Positions 6,518-42,388 of a DNA stretch of 64,000 nucleotides are shown here, piece by piece. Positions within the stretch are counted from its first letter, which is position 1. The number at the start of each line of letters is the position of its first letter. The stretch is from Escherichia coli. GTDB taxonomy: Bacteria; Pseudomonadota; Gammaproteobacteria; Enterobacterales; Enterobacteriaceae. The translations under genes and the position numbers were made by a program. Below the pieces are notes generated by a model. The model did no database searches and was not told where the DNA came from. It saw only the letters and a list, made by a program, of their open reading frames with translations. The stretch lies in the NCBI RefSeq assembly GCF_044324785.1, contig NZ_CP172127.1. The stretch is one strand, 5' to 3'.

Positions 6518-6665
6518 ATCCGCTCCGTCGTTATGGTTATAAAAACGTGACGAATATACCTACATTGGAGTAACAAATGATCCTACATAGATCACATTAC
6601 ATATGATAATTCACCCTTTATTGATCTGGATTAATTTAGAAGTTGCATTGAGAATCCTGGTTAAT

Positions 6666-6679
6666 GTGATTTAAATCAA
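6666..6679. promoter_or_regulatory. FNR-like box upstream of ompW
   Basis: GTGATttaaATCAA, 9/10 match to TTGAT-N4-ATCAA, in the ompW upstream region; a second weaker match at 6621..6634. Confidence 0.35.
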
Positions 6680-20741: not shown

Positions 20742-21217
20742 GGTTAGCTCCGAAGCAAAAGCCGGATAATGTTAGCCATAAATAAGGTTGAAAAGACGCG
20801 CTGACAATACGCCTTTTGACAGCATTTTTCACCTCCTAACTACTTAAAATTGCTATCATTCGTTATTGTTATCTGGTTGTGCAAAACATGCTAATGTAGC
20901 CACCAAATCATACTACAATTTATTAACTGTTAGCTATAATGGCGAAAAGCGATGCTGAAAGGTGTCAGCTTTGCAAAAATTTGATTTGGATCACGTAATC
21001 AGTACCCAGAAGTGAGTAATCTTGCTTACGCCACCTGGAAGTGACGCATTAGAGATAATAACTCTAATGTTTAAACTCTTTTAGTAAATCACAGTGAGTG
21101 TGAGCGCGAGTAAGCTTTTGATTTTCATCGGTTAAGCAAATCATCACCGCACTGACTATACTCTCGTATTCGAGCAGATGATTTACTAAAAAAGTTTAAC
21201 ATTATCAGGAGAGCATT

Positions 21218-27083: not shown

Positions 27084-28097
27084 TCATTCTGCAGACAACA
27101 TCAAGCGCAGCCGACCACCGGTTCCCCATATTTGGCATTGCCAGGCATCGCATCGCTGGCTCAATTGATTCAAATAAGCGTTACCTAAAGTGCCTAACGG
27201 AACACCATTACTGATTTGCACCTGGTGTTCGCCGGTATTTAACGTCGCATTCAGCCCCGCAGAAACCAGAATGAGATTTTTCAGTTCGCGATGATAATAG
27301 CCAACTAATAGCGGAAACTGCCCCGGCAGATTGGCCTGACGGAGTAAATGGTTTACCTGCTTCAATAACGCGCCCAACTCTGGCAACCGTTGATTTTGGT
27401 GTGCAAGCTGTTCCTGTAATAATCCGTTAAACAATGCGCGTAATAACAAGGCAGCAAGTACGCCATTATGTCCAGCTCGGGTGACATCAAGGCAATAAAA
27501 TGCCAGATCGTTTTCCGAAAGTGCGGCAATATCAAGCACCAGGCCGGGTTTGTCCGCGGCAACCAATTGACGATAATTAACCCGGCAATGGGAAATCACC
27601 TGCTGAACCGGCGGTTGCAATTCCTGTAATAATTTCGCCGCTGCGGCAGGGTTATCAACCATTGCATCCCAGTCGCGAAAAAGCCTCTCCTCTTCCTCAA
27701 CGCGGGAATTAAACATGCTGGGATAGAGACAGGCAAAAACCATCTCGCGCAAGCGATTCAGATCTTTAACTGGTTTCAGCAAAACATCTTCAACGCCCAG
27801 ACGTAACGCTTTGGCAATATCTGCCATATTTTCAGTGGCAGATATCACCAGAACCGGTGTCTGGTCACCTCTGTTACGTATATGCTCCAGCAATTTAAGC
27901 CCGTTCATTCGTGGCATCGCGATATCACATATCATCAGGTCTGGAGTGAAACCTCCCAGCAACTCAAGGGCATCCACCCCATCAGCCGCCAGTACCGTTG
28001 TCGCTCCCAATGAGGAAAACCACGAATCCAGAAGCGAGCGAAATACCTGCTCATCTTCAACAATGAGAATCTGTTTTCCGACCAATGGCTGCGTCAT
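27084..28097 (-). CDS. rssB: Response regulator RssB (RpoS proteolysis adaptor)
   Basis: 337 aa; receiver domain MTQPLVGKQILIVEDEQVFR… with phospho-acceptor Asp context; recognised as RssB/Hnr. Confidence 0.95.
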   Translation of the reverse strand: MTQPLVGKQILIVEDEQVFRSLLDSWFSSLGATTVLAADGVDALELLGGFTPDLMICDIAMPRMNGLKLLEHIRNRGDQTPVLVISATENMADIAKALRLGVEDVLLKPVKDLNRLREMVFACLYPSMFNSRVEEEERLFRDWDAMVDNPAAAAKLLQELQPPVQQVISHCRVNYRQLVAADKPGLVLDIAALSENDLAFYCLDVTRAGHNGVLAALLLRALFNGLLQEQLAHQNQRLPELGALLKQVNHLLRQANLPGQFPLLVGYYHRELKNLILVSAGLNATLNTGEHQVQISNGVPLGTLGNAYLNQLSQRCDAWQCQIWGTGGRLRLMLSAE

Positions 28098-28188
28098 GTT
28101 CTCTCCCCTGACTGGCTTTACTCAATAGTGGCATGCTATTGCCACCTGCGCCTGTCAGAATTAACTTAAGTGTAGATAAAAATTCTGG

Positions 28189-29094
28189 TCAAATGTTGGT
28201 GCGTACCAACGGCAAAAGTTCGTCCATTTTCTTTTCCACTGCCAGCTGCCCAGCCGCAATGGCAGCGTGCGCGCGATGGAAATCAAGCGTAGATATTTGC
28301 GGGCAAACAGGTTGAATCAGAATATCGGGCGGATCACCTGCCATGCGGTTCCTTTTAAGGCGGTTCTCCAGCACCTGGATAGAAGTGGTCATAATCTCTG
28401 TTGCCGTTGGCGCTGTCACCGCCCGACGTGTCGTTATGCTGCCCAACCTTTCTTTCAGACGCGCATGCCACGGCAGAGAATCACCATTCTCGCTATTTTC
28501 TTCACTGACATTAAAGGAGAGCAGATCTTGTTGCATCAAATGAGCATCGTGCTGCAGGTCGACCGCTATCACAATATCAGCACCCAATGCACGCGTGAGC
28601 GAAATAGGAATTGGGTTAACTACAGCGCCATCAACCAGCCAATAGCCGTTATGCGCAACGGGTGCCATTAGTCCTGGAATACTGCATGATGCACGAATAG
28701 CAAGATGGAGATCGCCTTCAGTAAACCATAATTCGCGCCCAGTACTTAAATTGGTGGCAACAGCCGCGAAGCGACGGGAACAATTTTCGATCTCTGTTTC
28801 CGGCATTATTTCGCGATATTGATTGAAGACACGCTCGCCGCGCAGTAACCCACCGCGCTGCCAGGAGAGATCCATCAGGCGTAAAACATCCCAATAACTG
28901 AAAGAGGTTACCCAATCTTCCAGCGCAGATAATCGATCGCATGCATAGGCAGCGCCCACCAGCGAACCAATTGAACATCCTGCAACGATATCAATTTCAA
29001 TACCCACTTTTTTTAGCGCATTAATAACGCCAATATGCGACCAACCTCTCGCCGCGCCAGATCCCAGCGCCAGCCCTATTTTTATCTTTCTCAT
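28189..29094 (-). CDS. rssA: Patatin-like phospholipase RssA
   Basis: 301 aa; GSGAARG oxyanion motif and GCSIGS lipase serine motif. Confidence 0.9.
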   Translation of the reverse strand: MRKIKIGLALGSGAARGWSHIGVINALKKVGIEIDIVAGCSIGSLVGAAYACDRLSALEDWVTSFSYWDVLRLMDLSWQRGGLLRGERVFNQYREIMPETEIENCSRRFAAVATNLSTGRELWFTEGDLHLAIRASCSIPGLMAPVAHNGYWLVDGAVVNPIPISLTRALGADIVIAVDLQHDAHLMQQDLLSFNVSEENSENGDSLPWHARLKERLGSITTRRAVTAPTATEIMTTSIQVLENRLKRNRMAGDPPDILIQPVCPQISTLDFHRAHAAIAAGQLAVEKKMDELLPLVRTNI

Positions 29095-29206
29095 TATTCC
29101 CGCAAGATTCCCCTGGAATGCAATCGTAGCAACATCGCTACTGCTCGGTTAACATAGTGCTACTCAGGCGGTTAATACGCCGTTATTGTTTCCAGGGAGA
29201 TTATTT

Positions 29207-29665
29207 GTGTCTCAGCTTTGTCCCTGTGGTAGTGCTGTCGAGTATAGCCTATGTTGCCACCCTTATGTGTCTGGTGAAAAGGTTGCACCTGATCCAGAAC
29301 ATCTCATGCGTTCGCGTTACTGCGCTTTTGTGATGCAAGACGCAGATTATTTAATAAAGACCTGGCATCCATCTTGTGGAGCGGCGGCGTTACGTGCCGA
29401 ATTGATTGCCGGATTTGCGCATACTGAATGGTTGGGATTGACCGTATTTGAACATTGTTGGCAGGACGGCGACAATATCGGTTTTGTCAGTTTTGTTGCG
29501 CGATTTACCGAAGGTGGCAAAACAGGTGCAATCATTGAACGTTCGCGATTTTTGAAAGAAAACGGTCAATGGTACTATATTGACGGTACACGTCCGCAGT
29601 TTGGCCGCAACGATCCCTGCCCTTGTGGTTCAGGTAAAAAATTTAAAAAGTGCTGCGGCCAATAA
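29207..29665 (+). CDS. ychJ: SEC-C-motif protein YchJ (UPF0225)
   Basis: Start placed at GTG 29207 ([13 protein letters not shown]…); CPCGS motifs at both termini; 152 aa. Confidence 0.85.
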
Positions 29666-29714
29666 TGGTTGACGGTACGGTTTAGCAAACACTCTCAACA
29701 AGGTTTTTCCAGCA

Positions 29715-30557
29715 ATGCAATCACTCCAACGTAAAGTTCTGCGTACTATTTGTCCGGACCAAAAAGGTCTGATCGCACGTATTACCAATATTTGCTACAA
29801 GCACGAGTTAAATATCGTACAGAACAATGAATTTGTTGATCACCGTACCGGGCGCTTTTTTATGCGCACGGAACTGGAAGGAATTTTTAATGATTCCACC
29901 CTGCTGGCGGATCTCGACAGCGCATTGCCAGAAGGCTCCGTACGTGAGCTGAATCCTGCTGGTCGTCGCCGGATAGTGATTCTGGTCACTAAAGAGGCGC
30001 ATTGCCTTGGCGATTTGTTGATGAAAGCCAATTACGGCGGCCTGGATGTCGAAATCGCGGCAGTTATTGGTAACCACGATACTTTACGTTCTCTGGTTGA
30101 GCGTTTTGATATTCCGTTTGAGCTGGTAAGTCATGAAGGATTAAGCCGCAACGAGCACGATCAAAAGATGGCGGATGCCATTGATGCTTATCAGCCTGAC
30201 TACGTGGTGCTGGCGAAGTATATGCGGGTATTAACGCCAGAATTTGTGGCACGCTTCCCGAATAAGATCATCAATATTCACCATTCATTCCTGCCAGCGT
30301 TTATCGGCGCACGTCCTTATCACCAGGCCTATGAACGTGGCGTGAAGATTATTGGCGCAACCGCTCACTATGTGAATGACAATCTGGACGAAGGTCCAAT
30401 CATCATGCAGGACGTTATTCATGTCGATCATACCTACACAGCTGAAGATATGATGCGCGCAGGTCGTGACGTCGAGAAAAACGTCTTAAGTCGCGCACTC
30501 TACAAAGTACTGGCGCAGCGCGTCTTTGTTTACGGTAATCGGACGATTATTCTTTAA
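29715..30557 (+). CDS. purU: Formyltetrahydrofolate deformylase
   Basis: 280-aa ORF with N-terminal ACT domain and formyltransferase core; recognised as PurU. Confidence 0.95.
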   Translation: MQSLQRKVLRTICPDQKGLIARITNICYKHELNIVQNNEFVDHRTGRFFMRTELEGIFNDSTLLADLDSALPEGSVRELNPAGRRRIVILVTKEAHCLGDLLMKANYGGLDVEIAAVIGNHDTLRSLVERFDIPFELVSHEGLSRNEHDQKMADAIDAYQPDYVVLAKYMRVLTPEFVARFPNKIINIHHSFLPAFIGARPYHQAYERGVKIIGATAHYVNDNLDEGPIIMQDVIHVDHTYTAEDMMRAGRDVEKNVLSRALYKVLAQRVFVYGNRTIIL

Positions 30558-30716
30558 TCGCCAGCAAAAATAACTGGTTACCTTTAATCCGTTACGGATG
30601 AAAATTACGCAACCAGTTCATTTTTCTCAACGTAACACTTTACAGCGGCGCGTCATTTGATATGATGCGCCCCGCTTCCCGATGAGGGAGCAGGCCAGTA
30701 AAAAGCATTACCCCGT

Positions 30717-30801
<85 letters not shown>

Positions 30802-30856
30802 TCACTTTCAAAAGTCCGTGAACTCTCAAACGAATCCGCGATTAAATATTCTGCCC

Positions 30857-30943
30857 ATGCGGGGAAGGATGGGAAGCTTCGACCAAGGTGCGACTCGAGC
30901 GCCAGCGAGAAAGCGTTGCCGCAGGCAACGACCCGAAGGGTGA
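30857..30943 (+). CDS. tpr: Protamine-like small basic protein Tpr (29 aa), inside the tyrT 3' repeat unit
   Basis: ATG 30857 to TGA 30941 gives [28 protein letters not shown]; matches the tpr ORF of the tyrT operon as recalled; whether it is translated is uncertain. Confidence 0.45.
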
Positions 30944-30960
30944 AGCGCGCAGCGCTGAGT

Positions 30961-30985
30961 AATCCTTCCCCCACCACCATCACTT
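30961..30985 (+). repeat. Direct repeat of the tRNA-Tyr 3' end (25 bp, period 178 bp)
   Basis: AATCCTTCCCCCACCACCATCACTT occurs at 30783..30807 and again at 30961..30985, exactly 178 bp apart. Confidence 0.8.
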
Positions 30986-31065
30986 CCTGTAAATACTCAA
31001 AACCAGTTACTCCGAGCTAATTCTGCCCAATGGCACCGCGTTTACCGGACCTACAATATCCATCC

Positions 31066-31098
31066 CTGTAGGTCGGATAAGCGAAGCGCATCCGACAA
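31066..31098. repeat. REP-like palindromic unit
   Basis: TGTAGGTCGGATAAGCGAAGCGCATCCGACAA with GTCGGAT/ATCCGAC arms, resembling REP consensus. Confidence 0.45.
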
Positions 31099-31117
31099 CT
31101 CACCCCGTACCGTGCCC

Positions 31118-31142
31118 ATAAAAAACCCCGCCGAAGCGGGGT
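31118..31142 (-). terminator. Rho-independent terminator after narI (end of narGHJI)
   Basis: On the minus strand: CCCCGCTTCGGCGGGG followed by TTTTTTA. Confidence 0.75.
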
Positions 31143-31162
31143 CTATGCAAACTAAAATTCGC

Positions 31163-31840
31163 TTAGTGACGAGCGCGCACCAGCTGATACTTACGTGTCA
31201 GATACTCCACCGGTACGCTCCAGATGTGCACCAGACGTGAGAACGGGAACAGCAAGAATAACGTCATCCCCAGCACCAGGTGCAGACGGAAGATAAACGC
31301 CACGCCATCAAGATGTTGAGAAGCGCCACCGTGGAAGGTCACCACCGACTGCGCCCAGCCAACCAGTTTCATCATCTCGCTACCGTCCATATGCTGGGCG
31401 GAGAACGGAATGGTCAGCAAGCCCAGAGCGCATTGGATAACCAGCAGAGACAGGATCAGGATATCCGCTCCGGTAGTCGTTGCACGCACGCGTGGGCTGA
31501 ACAGACGACGTTTCAGCAACAGCACGCCGCCAATCAGACACAGCACGCCGCTGGCACCACCAGCAAACATCGCCATTTTCTGTTTCACTTCAATCGGCAG
31601 CCAGGCTTCATACATCCAGTGCGGCGTCAGCATACCGAAGAAGTGACCGACAAAAATCCCCAGAATACCGATATGGAACAGGTTCGACGCCAGGTTCATC
31701 CCTTTGCGATCCAGCATCTGGCTGGACGCCGCGCGCCAGGTGTACTGCCCGTAGTCATAACGTAGCCAGCTACCAATCAGGAAGACCGCCCCGGCTATGT
31801 ACGGGTAGATATCAAAGAAGAACATATTCAGGAATTGCAT
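31163..31840 (-). CDS. narI: Respiratory nitrate reductase 1 gamma subunit
   Basis: 225-aa multi-TM haem-b subunit; recognised as NarI. Confidence 0.95.
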
Positions 31841-32550
31841 TAGTGCTGTCCTCCGGTGGTGATATTCAGATATTGCGGCGCGACGGCACCGGCAAAGCGA
31901 CGTTGATGGGCAGTGATGGCTGAATCACCGCAGCCTTTGTCAGCAAAGAATTTAACCTGCTCTTCTTCCCAGACGGCATCCAGCGCCTGCGGCGTATCGT
32001 CGCGCGCTTCGTCGGCAATTTTTTCCGCCACTTTGTCGCTGTCGATTGCGGTATTCGCCAGTTTCAGCAGCAGATCAAACAGCACGGCATAACGGCTTTC
32101 ACGCTGTTGCAGACGCGCGCAGAGCAATGCCAGAATCGGCGCGATATCTTTCAAACCTTCCACGGCTTCGCTTTGCGGCAGCTGCGCCAGATACTCCAGG
32201 TACAGCGGCAGATGGTCCGGCAATTCGCGGCTGTTTAACTGCAAACCGCGCTGCTCGTACTGTGCCAGCAGGTCCACCATCGCCTGACCGCGATCGCGGG
32301 ATTCCCCGTGAACGTGTTCAAACAGCAACAGCGACGTTGCGCGACCACGATCGAACAGTTCGCTGTACTGGGCCTGGGCATCGAGCGGATCCAGCGCCGT
32401 TAAATCGCGCAGGAAAATGCCCAGCGCATGGGCATCTTCTTTCGACAAATTTTCCGACGCGGCAATCGCCTCGAACATCTCCTGTTGATGCTGCCATAAG
32501 GCAGCATCCGGATATTCAAGGAGACGCGATACAATCACGAGTTCGATCAT
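31840..32550 (-). CDS. narJ: Nitrate reductase 1 assembly chaperone
   Basis: 236 aa; position between narH and narI; recognised as NarJ. Confidence 0.95.
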
Positions 32551-34085
32551 GGATGCGGCTCCGTTTTGCTGGTTACGTCGATGGCATCGATACGACGGCT
32601 GTTGAACAGATTGAATTTGGTATCTGAACCGTGGCAGCCATCACCAAAGGTAAAGCCGCAGCCATTTTTCTCCGGGAATGCTTCCCGCGCCAGTTCACGA
32701 TGACTGCTTGGTACCACAAAGCGATCTTCGTAGTTGGCAATCGCCAGATAACGATACATTTCCTGTGCCTGGGCTTCGGTCAGACCGACCTCTTCCAGCG
32801 CACGGGTATCCACTTTCCCGTCAACGGTTTCAGCACGTTTATAATGACGCATCGCCAGCATACGTTTCAGCGCGCGCAGTACCGGTTTGGTATCACCGGC
32901 GGTCAGCAGATTCGCCAGATACTGTACCGGAATACGCAGGCTTTCGACGTCTGGCAGAATGCCGTTGCTACCTAGCTCACCCGCGTCTGCTGCAGACTGA
33001 ATCGGAGACAGAGGCGGCACGTACCAGACCATCGGCAGTGTGCGATATTCTGGATGCAGCGGCAGCGCCAGTTTCCATTCCATTGCCATTTTATAAACCG
33101 GCGACTGCTGTGCGGCTTCAATAACACTCAGCGGAATACCGTCTTTAATCGCCTGCTCGATGACTTTCGGATCGTTCGGATCGAGGAACACCTCCAGCTG
33201 ACGCTGGTAGAGATCTTTCTCGTTCTCGGTGCTGGCTGCACGTTCAATGGCGTCCGCATCGTACAACAGCACGCCGAGATAACGGATACGACCGACACAG
33301 GTTTCAGAGCACACCGTCGGCTGACCCGCTTCAATACGCGGATAGCAGAAGATGCACTTCTCAGACTTACCGCTCTTCCAGTTGAAGTAGATTTTTTTGT
33401 ACGGGCATCCGGTGATGCACATACGCCAGCCACGGCATTTATCCTGGTCGATCAGGACGATGCCATCTTCTTCACGCTTGTAAATCGCACCGCTCGGGCA
33501 GGTCGCCACACATGCCGGGTTCAGGCAGTGTTCGCACAGGCGCGGCAAATACATCATGAAGGTGTTTTCGAACTGGCTATACATCGCCTTCTGGATGTTG
33601 TCGAAGTTCTTGTCTTTCGCCAGCTTGTCAAACTCACCGCCCAGGTCATCTTCCCAGTTAGGCCCTTTTTCGATTTTCGCCATCCGTTCCCCGGTAATCA
33701 GCGAACGCGGACGGGCAATCGGCTGCGATTTGCTGCCTTCCGGCGCGGTATGCAGGTTCTGATAATCAAAATCGAACGGCTCGTAATAATCGTCGATCCC
33801 CGGCAGATGCGGGTTAGCAAAGATTTTACCCAGCAGCATGGCTCGGTTACCCATGCGCGGTTGCAGTTTGCCATTGATTTTACGGATCCAGCCGCCTTTG
33901 TATTTTTCCTGGTTTTCCCAGTCAGTCGGGAAGCCCTGGCCCGGCTTGGTTTCCACGTTGTTGAACCACGCGTATTCCACGCCTTCACGGCTGGTCCAGA
34001 CGTTTTTACAGGTAACTGAACAGGTGTGGCAGCCGATGCACTTATCGAGATTCAGCACCATGCCGACTTGTGAACGAATTTTCAT
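32547..34085 (-). CDS. narH: Respiratory nitrate reductase 1 beta subunit (Fe-S)
   Basis: 512 aa with multiple Cys clusters (CIGCHTCSVTC, CEHCLNPACVATCPSG…); recognised as NarH. Confidence 0.95.
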   Translation of the reverse strand: MKIRSQVGMVLNLDKCIGCHTCSVTCKNVWTSREGVEYAWFNNVETKPGQGFPTDWENQEKYKGGWIRKINGKLQPRMGNRAMLLGKIFANPHLPGIDDYYEPFDFDYQNLHTAPEGSKSQPIARPRSLITGERMAKIEKGPNWEDDLGGEFDKLAKDKNFDNIQKAMYSQFENTFMMYLPRLCEHCLNPACVATCPSGAIYKREEDGIVLIDQDKCRGWRMCITGCPYKKIYFNWKSGKSEKCIFCYPRIEAGQPTVCSETCVGRIRYLGVLLYDADAIERAASTENEKDLYQRQLEVFLDPNDPKVIEQAIKDGIPLSVIEAAQQSPVYKMAMEWKLALPLHPEYRTLPMVWYVPPLSPIQSAADAGELGSNGILPDVESLRIPVQYLANLLTAGDTKPVLRALKRMLAMRHYKRAETVDGKVDTRALEEVGLTEAQAQEMYRYLAIANYEDRFVVPSSHRELAREAFPEKNGCGFTFGDGCHGSDTKFNLFNSRRIDAIDVTSKTEPHP

Positions 34086-37000
34086 TTTACGCTCTCCTGT
34101 ACCTGGTCATTGCCTTCGCCATCTAACCAGTCAATGTTCTTCATCTTACGCACTACAACAAACTCATCGCGGTTAGAACCTACGGTGCCGTAGTAGTTAA
34201 AGCCGTATGCCAGATGGGCATAGCCGCCGATCATATGCGTCGGTTTCGGCGTGATACGGGTGACCGAGTTATGGATACCACCACGCTGTTGGGTAATTTC
34301 CGAACCAGGCAGGTTAACGATACGTTCCTGCGCGTGGTACATCATGGTCATCCCTGCCGGAACACGCTGGCTGACAACCGCACGGGCAGTCAGAGCACCG
34401 TTGCTGTTGAATACTTCAATCCAGTCGTTATCGGCGATACCCAGATCTTTGGCATCGGCTTCACTCAACCAGACCACCGGACCACCGCGACCTAAAGTCA
34501 GCATCAGCAGGTTGTCGCTGTAGGTGGAGTGGATACCCCACTTCTGGTGCGGCGTCAGGAAGTTGAGCGCTTTTTCCGGGTTGCCGTTGGATTTCTGGCC
34601 TATCACTTCTTTCACCGAACGGGTGTCGATCGGCGGACGATAAACCAGCAGGCTTTCACCGAAATCACGCATCCACTGGTGATCCTGATACAGTTGCTGA
34701 CGACCAGAGAGCGTACGCCATGGGATCAGCTCGTGAACGTTGGTGTAACCGGCGTTGTAAGAAACGTGTTCATCTTCAAGGCCAGACCAGGTCGGGCTGG
34801 AGATGATTTTGCGCGGCTGTGCCTGAATATCGCGGAAGCGAATCTTCTCGTCTTCTTTATTCAGCGCCAGATGCGTATGGTCACGACCGGTAAACTCGCT
34901 CAGGGCAGCCCAGGCTTTCACGGCTACCTGACCGTTGGTTTCCGGTGCCAGCGTCAGGATCATCTCTGCCGCATCAATTGCGGTGTTCAGCATCGGCTGG
35001 CCTTTTGCCGGGCCTTCCGCTTTGGTGTAGTTGAGCTTACGCAGCAGATCCATCTCGCTCTGGGTGTTCCAGGCAATCCCTTTACCGCCATTACCGATTT
35101 TCTCCATCAGCGGGCCGATAGAGGTAAAGCGTTCGTAAGTCGCCGGATAATCGCGCTCTACGACCATAATGTGCGGTGCAGTTTTGCCAGGGATCAGGTC
35201 GCATTCGCCTTTTTTCCAGTCTTTCACATCCAGCGGCTGCGCCAGTTCAGCGGCAGAGTCGTGCTGGATAGGCAGCGTGACGATGTCGGTTTCTTTACCC
35301 AGATGGCCGACGCACACTTCGGAGAATTTCTTCGCGATGGCTTTGTAGATTTCCCAGTCGCTTTTCGCTTCCCAGGCCGGATCGACCGCCGCAGACAGCG
35401 GGTGAATAAACGGATGCATATCCGAAGTATTCATGTCGTCTTTTTCGTACCAGGTCGCCGTCGGCAAAATGATGTCGGAATAGAGACAGGTGCTCGACAG
35501 ACGGAAGTCCAGCGTAACCACCAGATCCAGCTTGCCTTCCAGACCATTGTCCTGCCAGTCCACTTCTTCCGGCTTCACGCCGCCCTGCTGCCCCAGATCT
35601 TTACCCTGGATACCGTGCTCCGTCCCCAGCAGGTACTTGAGCATAAACTCATGACCTTTACCGGAAGAACCGAGCAGGTTAGAACGCCAGATAAACAGGT
35701 TGCGCGGGTGGTTTTTACCGTTTTCTGGTTGTTCTGCCGCAAAACGGATGGAACCCTCTTTCAGGGATTTCACCGTATAGTCCACCGGATTCATCCCGGC
35801 TTTTTCCGCTTCGCCAGCGATAGTCAGCGGATTAGTGCCTAACTGCGGTGCAGACGGCAGCCAGCCCATGCGTTCGGCACGGACGTTAAAGTCGATCAGG
35901 TGTCCGGTATAACGGGATTTATCCGCCATCGGTGACAGCAACTCTTCCGCCGTGACGGTTTCATAACGCCACTGGCTGGAGTGGTTATAGAAATAAGAAG
36001 TGCTGTTCATGTGACGCGCCGGACGCTGCCAGTCAAGGGCAAACGCCAGCGGCTGCCAGCCGGTTTGCGGACGCAGTTTTTCCTGACCTACATAGTGCGC
36101 CCAGCCGCCCCCGCTCTGACCGACACAGCCGCAGAAAATCAGCATGTTGATCAGACCACGATAGTTCATATCGAGGTGATACCAGTGGTTCAGCCCCGCA
36201 CCGACGATAATCATCGAACGACCGTGCGTTTTATCAGCGTTATCGGCAAATTCACGGGCGATGCGAATAATCTGGCTGCGAGAAACGCCGGTAATCTGCT
36301 CGGCCCAGGCCGGGGTATAAGCTTTCACATCGTCATAGCTGGTTGCACAGTTAACGTCGTTCAGGCCACGTTCCAGACCGTAGTTTGCCAGCGTCAGATC
36401 ATAAACGGTGGTCACCAGGGCGGTGCTGCCATCAGCCAGTTGCAGGCGTTTCACCGGCAGTTTGTGCAGCAGCACGTTTTCCAGTTCCACTTTGTTGAAG
36501 TGTTCCGTGCCATCGCCACCAAAGTACGGGAAGCCCACCTCAGCGATCTCATCCTGGCTACCCAGCAGGCTTAGTTGCAGCTCGGTTTCTTCGCCAGTTT
36601 TGCCGTCGCGCTGCTCAAGATTCCATTTGCCCTTCTCGCCCCAGCGGAAGCCAATAGAACCGTTCGGCGCAACCATTTCGCCGTTGGTATTAAAGGCGAC
36701 AGTTTTCCATTCCGGATTGTTTTCCTGGCCCAGCGCATCCACCAGATCAGCAGCGCGCAGCATACGACCCGCAGCGTAGTAACCGTCGCGCTCTTCCAGC
36801 ATCACCAGCATCGGCATGTCGGTGTAGCGGCGCACATAGTCGGTGAAATACTGGCTTGGGTTGTCGAGGTGGAATTCACGCAGCATTACGTGGCCCATCG
36901 CCAGCGCCATTGCCGCATCGGTGCCCTGTTTCGGTGCCAGCCACAGATCGCACAGTTTGGCGATTTCAGCGTAGTCTGGCGTGACGGCAACAGTTTTGGT

Positions 37001-37825
37001 GCCTTTGTAACGCACTTCAGTAAAGAAGTGAGCATCCGGGGTACGCGTCTGCGGCACGTTTGAACCCCAGGCGATGATGTAGCTGGAGTTGTACCAGTCA
37101 GCAGATTCCGGTACGTCAGTCTGCTCGCCCCAGGTTTGCGGAGATGCAGGAGGCAGGTCGCAGTACCAGTCGTAGAAGCTTAAGCAAGTACCGCCAAGCA
37201 GCGAGAGATAGCGCGCGCCGGAAGCGTAAGAAACCATCGACATTGCCGGAATTGGCGAGAAGCCAGCGACGCGGTCCGGGCCGTAGTTTTTGATGGTGTA
37301 AACGTTAGATGCGGCGATCAGTTCGTTCACTTCCTGCCAGGAAGAACGAACAAAACCACCGCGTCCACGCGCCTGCTTAAAGCTTTTTGCTTTATCGGCG
37401 TCTTCAATGATAGAAGCCCATGCCTCAACCGGATCGCTATGCAGCGCCTTCGCTTCACGCCACATTTTCATCAGGCGTTTGCGCATCATCGGGTATTTCA
37501 GACGGTTGGCGCTGTAAAGATACCAAGAGTAGCTGGCACCACGCGGGCAGCCGCGAGGTTCATGGTTTGGCAGGTCCGGGCGAGTACGCGGATAGTCAGT
37601 CTGCTGGGTTTCCCAGGTCACCAGACCGTTTTTAACGTAGATTTTCCAGCTGCAGGAGCCGGTGCAGTTTACCCCGTGGGTAGAGCGGACGATTTTGTCA
37701 TGCTGCCAACGCTGGCGATATCCATCCTCCCAGTCACGGTTGGTATTGAGAAGCTGGCCATGCCCATCGGCAAAGGTTTCACCCTTCTGTTTGAAGTAGC
37801 GAAACCGGTCCAGGAATTTACTCAT
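34082..37825 (-). CDS. narG: Respiratory nitrate reductase 1 alpha subunit (molybdopterin)
   Basis: 1247-aa ORF MSKFLDRFRYFKQKGETFADGHGQLLNTNRDWEDGYRQRWQHDKIVRSTHGVNCTGSCSW…; recognised as NarG. Confidence 0.97.
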   Translation of the reverse strand: MSKFLDRFRYFKQKGETFADGHGQLLNTNRDWEDGYRQRWQHDKIVRSTHGVNCTGSCSWKIYVKNGLVTWETQQTDYPRTRPDLPNHEPRGCPRGASYSWYLYSANRLKYPMMRKRLMKMWREAKALHSDPVEAWASIIEDADKAKSFKQARGRGGFVRSSWQEVNELIAASNVYTIKNYGPDRVAGFSPIPAMSMVSYASGARYLSLLGGTCLSFYDWYCDLPPASPQTWGEQTDVPESADWYNSSYIIAWGSNVPQTRTPDAHFFTEVRYKGTKTVAVTPDYAEIAKLCDLWLAPKQGTDAAMALAMGHVMLREFHLDNPSQYFTDYVRRYTDMPMLVMLEERDGYYAAGRMLRAADLVDALGQENNPEWKTVAFNTNGEMVAPNGSIGFRWGEKGKWNLEQRDGKTGEETELQLSLLGSQDEIAEVGFPYFGGDGTEHFNKVELENVLLHKLPVKRLQLADGSTALVTTVYDLTLANYGLERGLNDVNCATSYDDVKAYTPAWAEQITGVSRSQIIRIAREFADNADKTHGRSMIIVGAGLNHWYHLDMNYRGLINMLIFCGCVGQSGGGWAHYVGQEKLRPQTGWQPLAFALDWQRPARHMNSTSYFYNHSSQWRYETVTAEELLSPMADKSRYTGHLIDFNVRAERMGWLPSAPQLGTNPLTIAGEAEKAGMNPVDYTVKSLKEGSIRFAAEQPENGKNHPRNLFIWRSNLLGSSGKGHEFMLKYLLGTEHGIQGKDLGQQGGVKPEEVDWQDNGLEGKLDLVVTLDFRLSSTCLYSDIILPTATWYEKDDMNTSDMHPFIHPLSAAVDPAWEAKSDWEIYKAIAKKFSEVCVGHLGKETDIVTLPIQHDSAAELAQPLDVKDWKKGECDLIPGKTAPHIMVVERDYPATYERFTSIGPLMEKIGNGGKGIAWNTQSEMDLLRKLNYTKAEGPAKGQPMLNTAIDAAEMILTLAPETNGQVAVKAWAALSEFTGRDHTHLALNKEDEKIRFRDIQAQPRKIISSPTWSGLEDEHVSYNAGYTNVHELIPWRTLSGRQQLYQDHQWMRDFGESLLVYRPPIDTRSVKEVIGQKSNGNPEKALNFLTPHQKWGIHSTYSDNLLMLTLGRGGPVVWLSEADAKDLGIADNDWIEVFNSNGALTARAVVSQRVPAGMTMMYHAQERIVNLPGSEITQQRGGIHNSVTRITPKPTHMIGGYAHLAYGFNYYGTVGSNRDEFVVVRKMKNIDWLDGEGNDQVQESVK

Positions 37826-37916
37826 CGGTTTTCTCCTGTGGGAGCCTGTCGGCCCTCTGATAAATCGACATTGCTAATGTTTAAGGGCAAGGTAACGCTC
37901 TGAAACAGCGTGGGAA

Positions 37917-37930
37917 TTGATAACGATCAA
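37917..37930. promoter_or_regulatory. FNR box of the narG promoter
   Basis: TTGATaacgATCAA, perfect TTGAT-N4-ATCAA, about 90 bp upstream of the narG start; a NarL-type heptamer TACCCCT lies at 37968..37974. Confidence 0.65.
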
Positions 37931-38168
37931 GAGTGATGGGGATGAAAAATAAAGTAAATTCCTAAGATACCCCTTTAGGATAATTAACAGCCACAACATA
38001 ACAGACTGTAAATTAAGACGTTTTATACCTGTAGTTATTTAAACTATTAAGATTTTTATGCAGATGGGTATTAAGGAGTATTCCCCATGGGTAACATATT
38101 AATGGCTCTTAATGAAATCCGGCGAAATAAGCCACTCACACATGAATATGTTGTAACTAAACGACAGA

Positions 38169-38196
38169 TAAAAAAAGCGCGACATCATGCCGCGCA
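38169..38196 (-). terminator. Rho-independent terminator after narK
   Basis: On the minus strand: GCGCGGCATGATGTCGCGC followed by TTTTTTT. Confidence 0.7.
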
Positions 38197-38218
38197 AAGG
38201 ATAATCAAATATTAAGAT

Positions 38219-39610
38219 TTATTTTTTAGAATGCCGACCATATACCGCCCAGGTAATCACTACGCAGGCGATATAGAAAATCAAAAATACTTTCATTGCG
38301 CCGACTGGCGAACCCGTTAATGCCAGCGAGCTACCGAACGCTTTCGGGATAAAGAAGCCACCAATCGCGCCAATCGCAGAGATGAAACCCAGCGCCGCCG
38401 CCGTGTCGGTTGCCGCTTCACGCATCGCACGTTCGTCAGACCCCCCTTCTGCTTTCACGCGATCCATTGTCAGTTTACGGAAGATCACGGAAATCATCTG
38501 GAAAGTGGAACCACTACCCAGCCCAGCTGTCAGGAACAGCGCCAGGAAGACTGCGAAGAACGCCATGAAGCTTCCGCCCTGTCCGTCAGTCGGTAAGGTC
38601 AGGAACAGCAGGCCGCTGAAAATCGCCATCAGGATAAAGTTCACCAGTGTGACACGAGTTCCGCCCAGACGGTCAGATAATGCACCACCTGCAGAACGCG
38701 CCAACGCACCAATAAACGGCCCGAAGAAAGCGTATTGCAGAATCTGAACATCCGGGAACTGCGTTTTTGACAGCATCGCAAAGCCCGCGGAGAAGCCGAT
38801 GAAGGAGCCGAAGGTTGCCAGATACAGCAGGCTCATAATCCACAGATGACCCCGTTTGAGTACCGGCAACTGCTCCTTGATGGAGGCTTTCGAGGTAGCA
38901 AGATCGTTCATGCCAAACCACGCCGCAATGGTGAAGATGGCAAGGAACGGCACCCATACCCAGGACGCATTCGCCAGATACAGCTCAGTCCCATCCGGCT
39001 GTTTGACACCCTGGCTACCAAATACTGCGAAAATCGACAGTGATACCACCAGCGGAGCAACCAACTGCATGACGCTGACGCCCATGTTGCCCAGACCACC
39101 ATTCAGACCCAGCGCGCCACCCTGCTTCTGTTTCGGAAAGAAGAAGCTGATGTTTGCCATACTGGATGCGAAGTTCGCGCCAGCAAAGCCGCACAGCAGA
39201 GAGATGATGATGAAGACGCTATAAGGCGTGGAGGTATCCTGCACGGCAAAACCCAGCCAGACACAAGGAATAATCAGAATACCGGTGCTGAACGCCGTCC
39301 AGCGACGACCACCGAAGATAGGAACCATAAAGGAGTATGGAACACGTAATAACGCGCCAGAAACCGAAGGCAGCGCAGTCAACATAAATAGCTGATCGGT
39401 CGTAAAATTAAAACCGACTTTCGGTAAGTTCACCGCAACAGCGCTGAACAACATCCATACGCAAAACGCCAGCAGCAGACAGGGAACGGAAATCCACAGG
39501 TTGCGGCTGGCAATACGTTGACCGCGTTGTTGCCAGAACGCAGGATCTTCCGGTCGCCAATCTGTAATGACAGCTCCAGTAGCCCTTTCGGGGGCGGATG
39601 AGTGACTCAT
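38219..39610 (-). CDS. narK: Nitrate/nitrite transporter NarK (MFS)
   Basis: Start placed at the second Met (MSHSSAPERATGAVITDW…), 463 aa; recognised as NarK. Confidence 0.95.
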   Translation of the reverse strand: MSHSSAPERATGAVITDWRPEDPAFWQQRGQRIASRNLWISVPCLLLAFCVWMLFSAVAVNLPKVGFNFTTDQLFMLTALPSVSGALLRVPYSFMVPIFGGRRWTAFSTGILIIPCVWLGFAVQDTSTPYSVFIIISLLCGFAGANFASSMANISFFFPKQKQGGALGLNGGLGNMGVSVMQLVAPLVVSLSIFAVFGSQGVKQPDGTELYLANASWVWVPFLAIFTIAAWFGMNDLATSKASIKEQLPVLKRGHLWIMSLLYLATFGSFIGFSAGFAMLSKTQFPDVQILQYAFFGPFIGALARSAGGALSDRLGGTRVTLVNFILMAIFSGLLFLTLPTDGQGGSFMAFFAVFLALFLTAGLGSGSTFQMISVIFRKLTMDRVKAEGGSDERAMREAATDTAAALGFISAIGAIGGFFIPKAFGSSLALTGSPVGAMKVFLIFYIACVVITWAVYGRHSKK

Positions 39611-39669
39611 AGACACCTCTGATACTCGTTTCGATGTCTGCCACCTTAGTGTCTGTAGCTAAAGGCAAT

Positions 39670-39683
39670 TTGATGTAAATCAA
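39670..39683. promoter_or_regulatory. FNR box in the narK promoter
   Basis: TTGATgtaaATCAA, perfect consensus; a second near-consensus box TTGATatttATCAT at 39708..39721. Confidence 0.6.
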
Positions 39684-39948
39684 ACGATAAGATAACTTTA
39701 TCTATCATTGATATTTATCATTACCCATAGTGAGTACAGTGATTTCATAAAAATTATGAGATTTTTCACGGTGCTGTAAAATCCCTACCCTTACCGATGT
39801 AAAGCGACTAACCACACGGCAAATAAGGAGTAACTCTTTCCGGGTATGGGTATACTTCAGCCAATAGCCGAGAATACTGCCATTCCAGAATGTATCGTCA
39901 CATTCATTAAGGTTATTGCTCATTTAAAGCCTGAAGGAAGAGGTTTAC

Positions 39949-41745
39949 ATGCTTAAACGTTGTCTCTCTCCGCTCACCCTGGTTAATCAGGTTGCGCTTA
40001 TTGTGTTGCTTTCTACTGCTATTGGACTGGCAGGGATGGCGGTTTCTGGCTGGCTGGTGCAAGGCGTTCAGGGCAGCGCCCATGCAATAAACAAAGCGGG
40101 ATCGCTGCGCATGCAAAGTTACCGTCTTTTGGCGGCAGTGCCATTAAGCGAGAAAGACAAGCCCTTAATTAAAGAGATGGAACAAACAGCATTTAGCGCC
40201 GAGTTAACTCGAGCAGCAGAACGAGACGGACAACTGGCGCAATTACAGGGTTTACAAGATTACTGGCGTAATGAACTGATCCCTGCGCTAATGCGTGCAC
40301 AAAACCGCGAAACGGTGTCAGCGGATGTCAGCCAGTTTGTTGCCGGGCTTGATCAACTGGTATCTGGTTTTGACCGCACCACGGAAATGCGCATTGAGAC
40401 AGTGGTGCTGGTCCATCGGGTAATGGCGGTATTTATGGCACTTTTACTGGTGTTCACTATTATCTGGTTGCGGGCGCGACTGCTACAACCGTGGCGGCAA
40501 TTGCTGGCAATGGCGAGTGCCGTCAGTCATCGCGATTTTACCCAACGCGCAAACATCAGCGGGCGCAACGAAATGGCGATGCTTGGAACTGCGTTGAACG
40601 ATATGTCTGCAGAACTGGCCGAAAGTTATGCCGTACTTGAGCAGCGGGTTCAGGAGAAAACCGCCGGGCTGGAGCATAAAAATCAGATCCTCTCTTTTTT
40701 ATGGCAGGCCAACCGCCGATTGCATTCCCGCGCCCCGCTGTGTGAACGCCTGTCCCCTGTACTCAACGGCTTACAGAATTTGACCCTGCTACGTGATATC
40801 GAACTGCGGGTGTATGACACTGATGATGAAGAGAATCATCAGGAGTTTACCTGCCAGCCAGATATGACTTGTGATGATAAAGGCTGCCAGCTCTGCCCGC
40901 GCGGCGTATTACCCGTTGGCGATCGCGGCACAACCCTGAAGTGGCGGCTGGCTGACTCTCATACGCAGTACGGCATTTTGCTGGCGACCCTACCGCAGGG
41001 GCGTCATCTTAGCCATGATCAACAACAACTGGTGGATACCCTGGTTGAACAACTCACCGCCACGCTGGCGCTGGATCGCCATCAGGAACGTCAGCAACAG
41101 TTGATTGTGATGGAAGAGCGTGCCACCATTGCGCGCGAACTGCATGATTCTATTGCCCAATCTCTCTCTTGCATGAAGATGCAGGTGAGTTGTTTACAGA
41201 TGCAGGGCGATGCGCTGCCAGAAAGCAGCCGCGAACTGTTAAGTCAGATCCGTAACGAACTGAATGCATCCTGGGCGCAGTTGCGTGAATTGCTCACCAC
41301 ATTCCGCTTGCAGCTCACCGAGCCTGGATTACGTCCGGCGCTGGAGGCGAGTTGCGAAGAGTACAGCGCCAAATTTGGCTTCCCGGTGAAGCTGGATTAT
41401 CAATTGCCGCCTCGTCTGGTGCCTTCGCATCAGGCAATCCACTTGTTGCAAATTGCCCGTGAGGCATTAAGTAACGCCCTCAAACATTCGCAAGCGAGTG
41501 AGGTCGTGGTGACGGTGGCGCAAAACGATAATCAGGTCAAACTGACCGTCCAGGATAACGGCTGCGGCGTGCCAGAAAATGCCATCCGCAGCAATCACTA
41601 CGGCATGATAATAATGCGCGACCGTGCGCAAAGTTTACGAGGCGATTGCCGCGTCCGCCGTCGTGAATCAGGTGGCACCGAAGTGGTGATCACCTTTATT
41701 CCCGAAAAAACTTTCACAGACGTCCAAGGAGATACCCATGAGTAA
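39949..41745 (+). CDS. narX: Nitrate/nitrite sensor histidine kinase NarX
   Basis: 598 aa; two TM segments flanking a periplasmic P-box, HAMP, and HisKA_3/HATPase ([11 protein letters not shown]…); recognised as NarX. Confidence 0.95.
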
Positions 41746-42388
41746 TCAGGAACCGGCTACTATCCTGCTGATCGACGATCACCCGATGTTGCGAACTGGC
41801 GTAAAACAGCTTATCAGTATGGCACCAGATATCAGCGTGGTTGGCGAAGCGAGTAATGGCGAACAGGGTATTGAACTGGCGGAATCTCTTGATCCCGATC
41901 TGATCCTGTTAGATCTCAATATGCCCGGCATGAATGGTCTGGAAACGCTGGATAAACTCCGCGAAAAGTCCCTCTCAGGGCGCATTGTGGTATTCAGCGT
42001 CTCTAACCATGAAGAAGATGTGGTCACCGCACTGAAACGCGGCGCGGATGGCTATCTGTTAAAAGATATGGAACCGGAAGATCTGCTGAAAGCATTGCAT
42101 CAGGCAGCTGCTGGCGAAATGGTATTAAGCGAAGCATTAACGCCTGTTCTGGCCGCCAGCTTGCGCGCTAACCGTGCCACTACTGAGCGCGATGTTAACC
42201 AGTTAACCCCACGCGAGCGCGATATTCTCAAGCTGATTGCCCAGGGTTTGCCGAACAAGATGATTGCCCGCCGCCTGGACATCACCGAAAGCACAGTAAA
42301 AGTGCACGTCAAGCACATGCTGAAGAAAATGAAGCTCAAGTCTCGCGTGGAAGCAGCGGTATGGGTGCATCAGGAGCGCATTTTCTGA
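41738..42388 (+). CDS. narL: Nitrate/nitrite response regulator NarL
   Basis: 216 aa; receiver domain plus LuxR-type HTH; 8-nt overlap with narX; recognised as NarL. Confidence 0.97.

Follow-up and report, generated by a model that had tools for sequence, protein, structure and literature searches.

The 338-base spacer between narK and narX raises the question of which of its FNR boxes act, and on which of the two divergent genes. We addressed this question in a stretch of 64,000 nucleotides from Escherichia coli, here called the window, to whose numbering all positions refer. The spacer (39611–39948) exactly fills the gap between narK, the nitrate/nitrite antiporter gene (38219–39610, minus strand; ATG at 39610, protein start MSHSSAP), and narX, the nitrate sensor kinase gene (39949–41745, plus strand). 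The response regulator gene narL (41738–42388, plus strand) lies 3′ of narX, and the narGHJI operon for respiratory nitrate reductase A (31163–37825, minus strand) lies beyond narK. An earlier note on this DNA had placed FNR boxes at 39670 (TTGATGTAAATCAA) and 39708 (TTGATATTTATCAT) in the spacer, and an FNR box at 37917 (TTGATAACGATCAA) and a NarL heptamer, TACCCCT, at 37968 upstream of narG. All four motifs were found, at 39670–39683, 39708–39721, 37917–37930 and 37968–37974, respectively; we refer to the two spacer boxes as box 1 and box 2. The assignment of the genes as narL–narX, narK and narGHJI, and their wiring through FNR and NarL as the note described it, match published data for K-12.

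The spacer is identical to that of K-12 MG1655 (b1222/b1223 region) at 337 of its 338 bases. The sole difference, A/G at 39743 (≈ −108 relative to the narK start), falls in a non-conserved stretch between sites. One base, at ≈ −113, also differs in the narG promoter between −243 and the ATG, and neither difference touches any recognisable site. FNR sequence, its distance to the ATG, heptamers and −10 hexamer are all identical between the K-12 narK promoter and the window. The K-12 narGHJI promoter shares with the window an FNR box at −41.5 and heptamers at −89, −185, −195 and −208, and we detected no difference of regulatory consequence between the two. An 801-bp query spanning the spacer matched 5,415 of 5,426 complete E. 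coli genomes at 95–99.5% identity, and the features hit were annotated narX and narK. Judged by its sequence, this is the very DNA that controls narK and narG in K-12 and not a mere look-alike. The nar control region is already known, and there is nothing new in it; the functional statements made below are those of published K-12 work, carried over by the near-identity of the sequences. Over a larger region (28000–46000), the best of the 5,426 complete E. coli genomes was only 98.7% identical over 18 kb; this region is clearly nearer to E. coli than to an Escherichia sp. MOD1 isolate (95.3%) or to E. albertii (89.8%).

Box 1, the promoter-proximal FNR site of narK, lies on the minus strand and reads TTGATTTACATCAA in the narK direction. 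The narG site, also on the minus strand, reads TTGATCGTTATCAA in the narG direction. Both are perfect matches to the consensus, centred 66.5 bp 5′ of the narK ATG and 98.5 bp 5′ of the narG ATG. The exact repeat TTGAT-N4-ATCAA occurs twice in the 64-kb window, compared with 0.09 occurrences expected from shuffled sequence, and both occurrences are these nar sites. The two intergenic regions are AT-rich (38% G+C), and many consensus-grade FNR matches in K-12 are unbound in vivo according to the available rows of Table S6 of Myers 2013 (PMC3688515). Both facts favor regarding the boxes as chance matches in AT-rich intergenic DNA that have no regulatory role. We shuffled each nar spacer separately (20,000 dinucleotide-preserving shuffles each), a procedure that allows for the local base composition. 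The probability that a perfect box arises by chance in a nar intergenic region was ≈ 0.001, and that of a box with at most one mismatch was ≈ 0.03. At a chance probability of ≈ 0.001 per spacer, box 1 and the narG box are far beyond chance.

The published K-12 data on the same two boxes point in the same direction. FNR ChIP-seq peaks were reported at narK and at narGHJI, and each has its top site at −41.5 relative to the known start (Myers 2013, PMC3688515, Table 1). In the rows of Table S6 of that paper considered here, TTGATTTACATCAA (narX/narK) is given at K-12 position 1277107 with a PatSer score of 17.06, joint second highest among the rows listed, and TTGATCGTTATCAA (narG) at 1278982 with a score of 14.78; each carries a ChIP-seq peak. 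Expressed in current K-12 coordinates, the box starts from these rows place the centres 66.5 bp before the ATG of narK and 98.5 bp before that of narG, exactly as in the window. FNR also bound a narX/narK target in a ChIP-chip study of K-12 (PMC1802558), and fnr-dependent expression is listed for both narK (ratio 0.068) and narG (ratio 0.020) (Myers 2013, PMC3688515). In Salmonella, FNR and NarL are both required for narK and its small RNA NarS (PMC7038943).

To obtain independent information on the boxes, we compared orthologous loci. A scan of reference genomes for NarK returned 80 loci, 46 of which have narX divergently upstream and are thereby true narK orthologues rather than narU loci. 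Box 1 was perfect in 46 of the 46 narX/narK loci, 42 of which belong to Enterobacteriaceae. Its centre lies 64.5–71.5 bp from the narK ATG in Enterobacteriaceae and 88.5–90.5 bp in Rahnella and Limnobaculum. The narG box was perfect in all 38 Enterobacteriaceae orthologues examined. From Escherichia to Cedecea, the −41.5 box and the −10 hexamer of each promoter have been kept, as have the heptamer blocks. Calculated column by column, conservation stands out at the FNR boxes and −10 hexamers, at an A/T block (−137 to −113) and in the heptamer blocks near −90, −195 and −215. Perfect conservation, in vivo binding and dependence on FNR all stand against a chance origin of box 1 and the narG box, and the published ChIP data refute it for these two sites. 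As an account of the boxes as a whole it is extremely improbable; it survives for box 2 only.

With one mismatch to the FNR consensus allowed, the window contained nine matches compared with 3.15 expected. Two of these, at 6621–6634 and 6666–6679 and 45 bp apart, are the two ompW sites (TTAATCCAGATCAA and TTGATTTAAATCAC), and one at 20981–20994 is the adhE/ychE site (GTGATCCAAATCAA). All three appear with ChIP peaks in the rows of Table S6 available from Myers 2013 (PMC3688515) and are thus bound in K-12. The three nar boxes together with the two ompW boxes and the adhE/ychE box account for the excess. A further one-mismatch match, TTGATGCTTATCAG, lies inside purU at 30181–30194. Its K-12 counterpart is the perfect consensus TTGATAAGCATCAA, which the listed part of the same table gives as not bound by FNR in vivo (PMC3688515). 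A perfect box alone is therefore no proof of function.

The −41.5 position of the K-12 boxes sets the transcription starts in the window. For narK the inferred start is the A at 39635 (minus strand), which is preceded by C and leaves a 25-nt leader; for narG it is the A at 37882 (minus strand), with a leader of 57 nt. The corresponding −10 hexamers are TAAGGT for narK (39643–39648, minus strand; −13 to −8), conserved across genera, and TACCTT for narG (37889–37894, minus strand; −12 to −7), likewise conserved. A scan of 37700–40050 for the sigma-70 consensus returned no promoter for narK, narG or narX, and no −35 consensus at narK. The lack of a −35 element or a full sigma-70 match at narK and narG is what one expects where transcription requires an activator bound at −41.5. 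Both promoters thus combine a perfect repeat centred at −41.5 with a −10 hexamer ≈ 23 bp downstream and no good −35, the arrangement of class II FNR-dependent promoters, the start position in each case being carried over from K-12. The earlier note had suggested that spacing be compared with the mapped promoters; on this comparison box 1 and the narG box both lie at a functional distance from the K-12 starts (PMC3688515).

Two other elements were seen in the narK half of the spacer. A sigma-70-like sequence, TTTACA-16-CATAAT (39780–39753), was the sole minus-strand hit of the sigma-70 scan. It matches 10 of 12 consensus positions and points to narK, and it falls within the presumed IHF region, ≈ 110 bp before the main start. 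We rejected it as a promoter: other genera do not conserve its −10, and the scan as a whole performed at chance level. A perfect 6-2-6 palindrome, AGATAA-CT-TTATCT (39690–39703), is found between the two narK FNR boxes with its centre at ≈ −61.5; it shows no conservation outside Escherichia, and we know of no factor assigned to it.

Sites for NarL are far more frequent than expected. The two nar spacers (731 bp) contain seven exact TACYYMT heptamers, compared with ≈ 0.35 expected at the window-wide shuffle rate. Upstream of narG, the conserved heptamer TACCCCT (37968–37974, plus strand) covers −86 to −92 and is inverted relative to narG. Farther upstream, at 38064–38093 on the minus strand, are TACCCAT at −185, TACTCCT at −195 and TACCCAT at −208, of which the −195/−185 pair is strongly conserved. 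NarL-phosphate protects the −89 and −195 regions of narG, the −89 site having been identified as TACCCCT (PMC4549865); the TACCCCT singled out in the earlier note is this published site. The narG start had been set from the FNR site alone, and with it the heptamers fall at −89, −185, −195 and −208, of which −89 and −195 match the published footprints (PMC4549865).

The narK promoter has the same layout. In a conserved block at 39722–39736 (−101 to −87), an inverted pair of NarL-type heptamers reads TACTCAC-T-ATGGGTA in the narK direction; it consists of an exact TACCCAT (39722–39728, plus strand; −87 to −93) and a degenerate TACTCAC (−101 to −95). The inverted heptamer has the position and the orientation of the narG −89 heptamer. 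Two more heptamers, on the minus strand and thus forward for narK, lie within 39826–39852: TACTCCT at 39826–39832 (−191 to −197) and TACCCAT at 39846–39852 (−211 to −217). Both are in strongly conserved blocks, where the substitutions seen in other genera preserve TACYYMT. Common to narK and narG, then, are an inverted heptamer near −90 and forward heptamers near −185 to −215. Between these positions in the narK spacer, a conserved A/T-tract block (39748–39772; −137 to −113) is a candidate IHF-binding or bend region. IHF ChIP-chip enrichment is flagged at the narX/narK site in the available portion of Table S6 (Myers 2013, PMC3688515). A search of the window for the IHF consensus WATCARNNNNTTR with at most one mismatch gave 125 matches, barely more than the 101 expected by chance, and none in the segments expected for narK or narG.

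We are highly confident that the interval is the well-studied E. coli narK promoter region, that the narG sites are those of the equally well-studied narG promoter, and that the two work as follows. When oxygen is absent, FNR dimers would occupy the perfect repeat at −41.5 of each promoter and touch RNA polymerase directly, standing in for the missing −35 element as in class II activation, and transcription would start from 39635 (narK) and 37882 (narG). These steps have been shown in K-12 and should hold here by identity of the DNA. With nitrate present, NarX would sense it and phosphorylate NarL, and NarL-phosphate would bind the TACYYMT heptamers near −90 and at −185 to −215; both steps are known for narG in K-12, and the matching layout and its conservation suggest the same for narK. 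An A/T-rich segment at ≈ −125, bent by IHF, would draw the far NarL sites to the polymerase, as at K-12 narG and presumably at narK. Transcription of narX would proceed in the opposite direction from a weak promoter of its own, ≈ 250 bp from the narK start and within a conserved block in which NarL heptamers are also found, and the FNR boxes would not be positioned to activate it. The nirB promoter of E. coli offers a comparison. It shares its 14-bp FNR site with narK (TTGATTTACATCAA, score 17.06), again centred at −41.5, and is also co-regulated by NarL; according to an account cited in Myers 2013 (PMC3688515), however, NarL acts there by displacing IHF and Fis near −70 and not from far-upstream heptamers.

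The earlier note placed two FNR boxes upstream of narK. The two differ in standing: box 1 is the K-12 site and is present in every orthologous locus, and box 2 is below the matrix threshold and confined to Escherichia. Box 2 (39708–39721; TTGATATTTATCAT/ATGATAAATATCAA) is a putative, distal FNR-like box centred at −79.5, which is listed in curated databases as an FNR site. If it is functional, narK would have tandem FNR sites at −41.5 and −79.5, and FNR bound at both would boost or dampen transcription, as at the two-site yfiD promoter. The match itself is good: nine of the ten specified positions agree, and a box of this quality arose in only ≈ 3% of the shuffled spacers, which, as far as sequence goes, is only mildly beyond chance. 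The position-weight matrix derived from ChIP data is less favorable. Box 2 is missing from the listed rows of Table S6, whose threshold is ln(p) ≤ −10.75, and is thus below the published cut-off, whereas those rows do include similar one-mismatch sites, as well as both yfiD sites and both ompW sites (PMC3688515). Table 1 of the same paper counts narK with one FNR site. The ChIP-seq peak centre in K-12 (1277080–82) falls 32 bp from box 1 but only ≈ 5 bp from the middle of box 2, which would be compatible with occupancy of both boxes. We rejected this as evidence for box 2, given that the tables show peaks lying 8 to 53 bp away from their sites at other promoters. Spacing argues against joint action as well: the two box centres are 38 bp or ≈ 3.6 helical turns apart, which by calculation puts the two dimers on different faces of the helix.

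Conservation of box 2 was limited. Apart from the window, only two of the orthologous loci have it: that of E. albertii, at ≈ 90% DNA identity, and that of a divergent E. coli, at 93%. The 39 loci from other Enterobacteriaceae genera lack it, their right half-site being unrecognisable; those of Rahnella and Limnobaculum lack it too, and in Escherichia sp. MOD1-EC7003 the box has been lost. Retention in E. albertii might be read as a sign of selection, but we estimate that at 10% divergence neutral drift alone would leave the box intact in ≈ 30% of cases, and we rejected this reading. Within E. coli, the 76-bp segment carrying both narK boxes is identical in 4,237 of 5,417 records. Four variant genomes that we sampled have changes at 39724, in the adjacent heptamer, or at 39675, in the unspecified spacer of box 1, and the specified positions of the boxes are unchanged. 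With so little divergence within E. coli, this invariance says little. At the yfiD promoter, an upstream second FNR box accompanies a site near −41, and the two boxes, 53 bp apart, both pass the matrix threshold. Unlike these, box 2 of narK fails the threshold, lies 38 bp from its partner and is not conserved; as a tandem FNR site it falls short in both matrix score and conservation among orthologues. A literature search returned nothing relevant on two FNR sites at narK, the primary papers on narK mapping being outside its reach. We consider tandem action of the two boxes possible but doubtful and give a measurable role of box 2 of any kind the same tentative standing; it probably contributes little or nothing. 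Supported neither by conservation across genera nor by the ChIP-derived matrix, box 2 should not be put on a par with the −41.5 site. It is unlikely that box 2 is a second FNR site acquired in Escherichia only, which would give E. coli and E. albertii a species-specific tuning of narK, and hence of NarS, or would mediate FNR repression of narXL. If either were true, these species would have a rewired control region compared with Citrobacter, Klebsiella and Enterobacter, which lack box 2.

The description of the spacer as a divergent control region is accurate in that it separates divergent genes; the FNR boxes are placed for narK, and for narX the description was overstated. The most conserved block of the spacer (39840–39881; GTATTCTCGG...AAGTATACCCATACCC) lies 68–109 bp 5′ of the narX ATG and includes NarL heptamers. 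We infer that it is a candidate narX promoter and NarL autoregulation region. A candidate −10 hexamer for narX, GAGAAT, was read by eye at 39871–39876. Truly bidirectional FNR boxes, which would regulate narXL as well, for example by repression of narX, have some backing in the literature. A comparative-genomics paper describes narXL as repressed by Fnr and activated by NarL and NarP, with reference to array and reporter studies (PMC1805755), and a sigma-70 ChIP peak that was assigned to narK is centred in the middle of the spacer (Myers 2013, PMC3688515), which would fit two divergent promoters. The geometry argues otherwise. The FNR box centres are ≈ 234 and ≈ 272 bp from the narX ATG and ≈ 125 to 205 bp from the conserved block, the best candidate for a narX promoter. 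Moreover, narXL is not among the FNR-dependent operons tabulated in Myers 2013, which lists narK and narGHJI as activated (PMC3688515). We therefore regard bidirectional control by these boxes as very unlikely. The FNR boxes are placed for narK, and nothing in our analysis points to a service to narX.

Some differences from K-12 were seen downstream of narK and narG. The intrinsic terminator of narK (38177–38195, minus strand) corresponds to the 3′ end of the NarS small-RNA region in the K-12 narS annotation. Directly after the narK stop codon, within the annotated narS region, K-12 has a 122-bp insertion that the window lacks (junction 38196–38218). We take this insertion to be an ERIC/IRU repeat, as its core appears to match the standard ERIC primer sequences. 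The insertion is polymorphic: of 60 E. coli records sampled evenly, 27 carry it, and matches at ≥ 99% were found in 2,457 records. NarS is processed from the narK 3′ UTR, and an E. coli insertion at this spot was noted in the paper that describes it (PMC7038943). The length of the NarS precursor would accordingly vary between strains. An Rfam scan of 29000–43000 scored only tRNA-Tyr and RtT and no NarS family. Between purU and narI, at 30717–30979, the window carries a single tRNA-Tyr gene followed by one RtT element. K-12 has a tandem tyrT–tyrV pair at this place, and the copy number of the repeat unit thus appears to differ.

The significance of these results beyond annotation is small: the nitrate-respiration switch of this genome is intact and of the K-12 type, and coordinates for its transcription starts, FNR sites, NarL heptamers and −10 hexamers can be carried over confidently.
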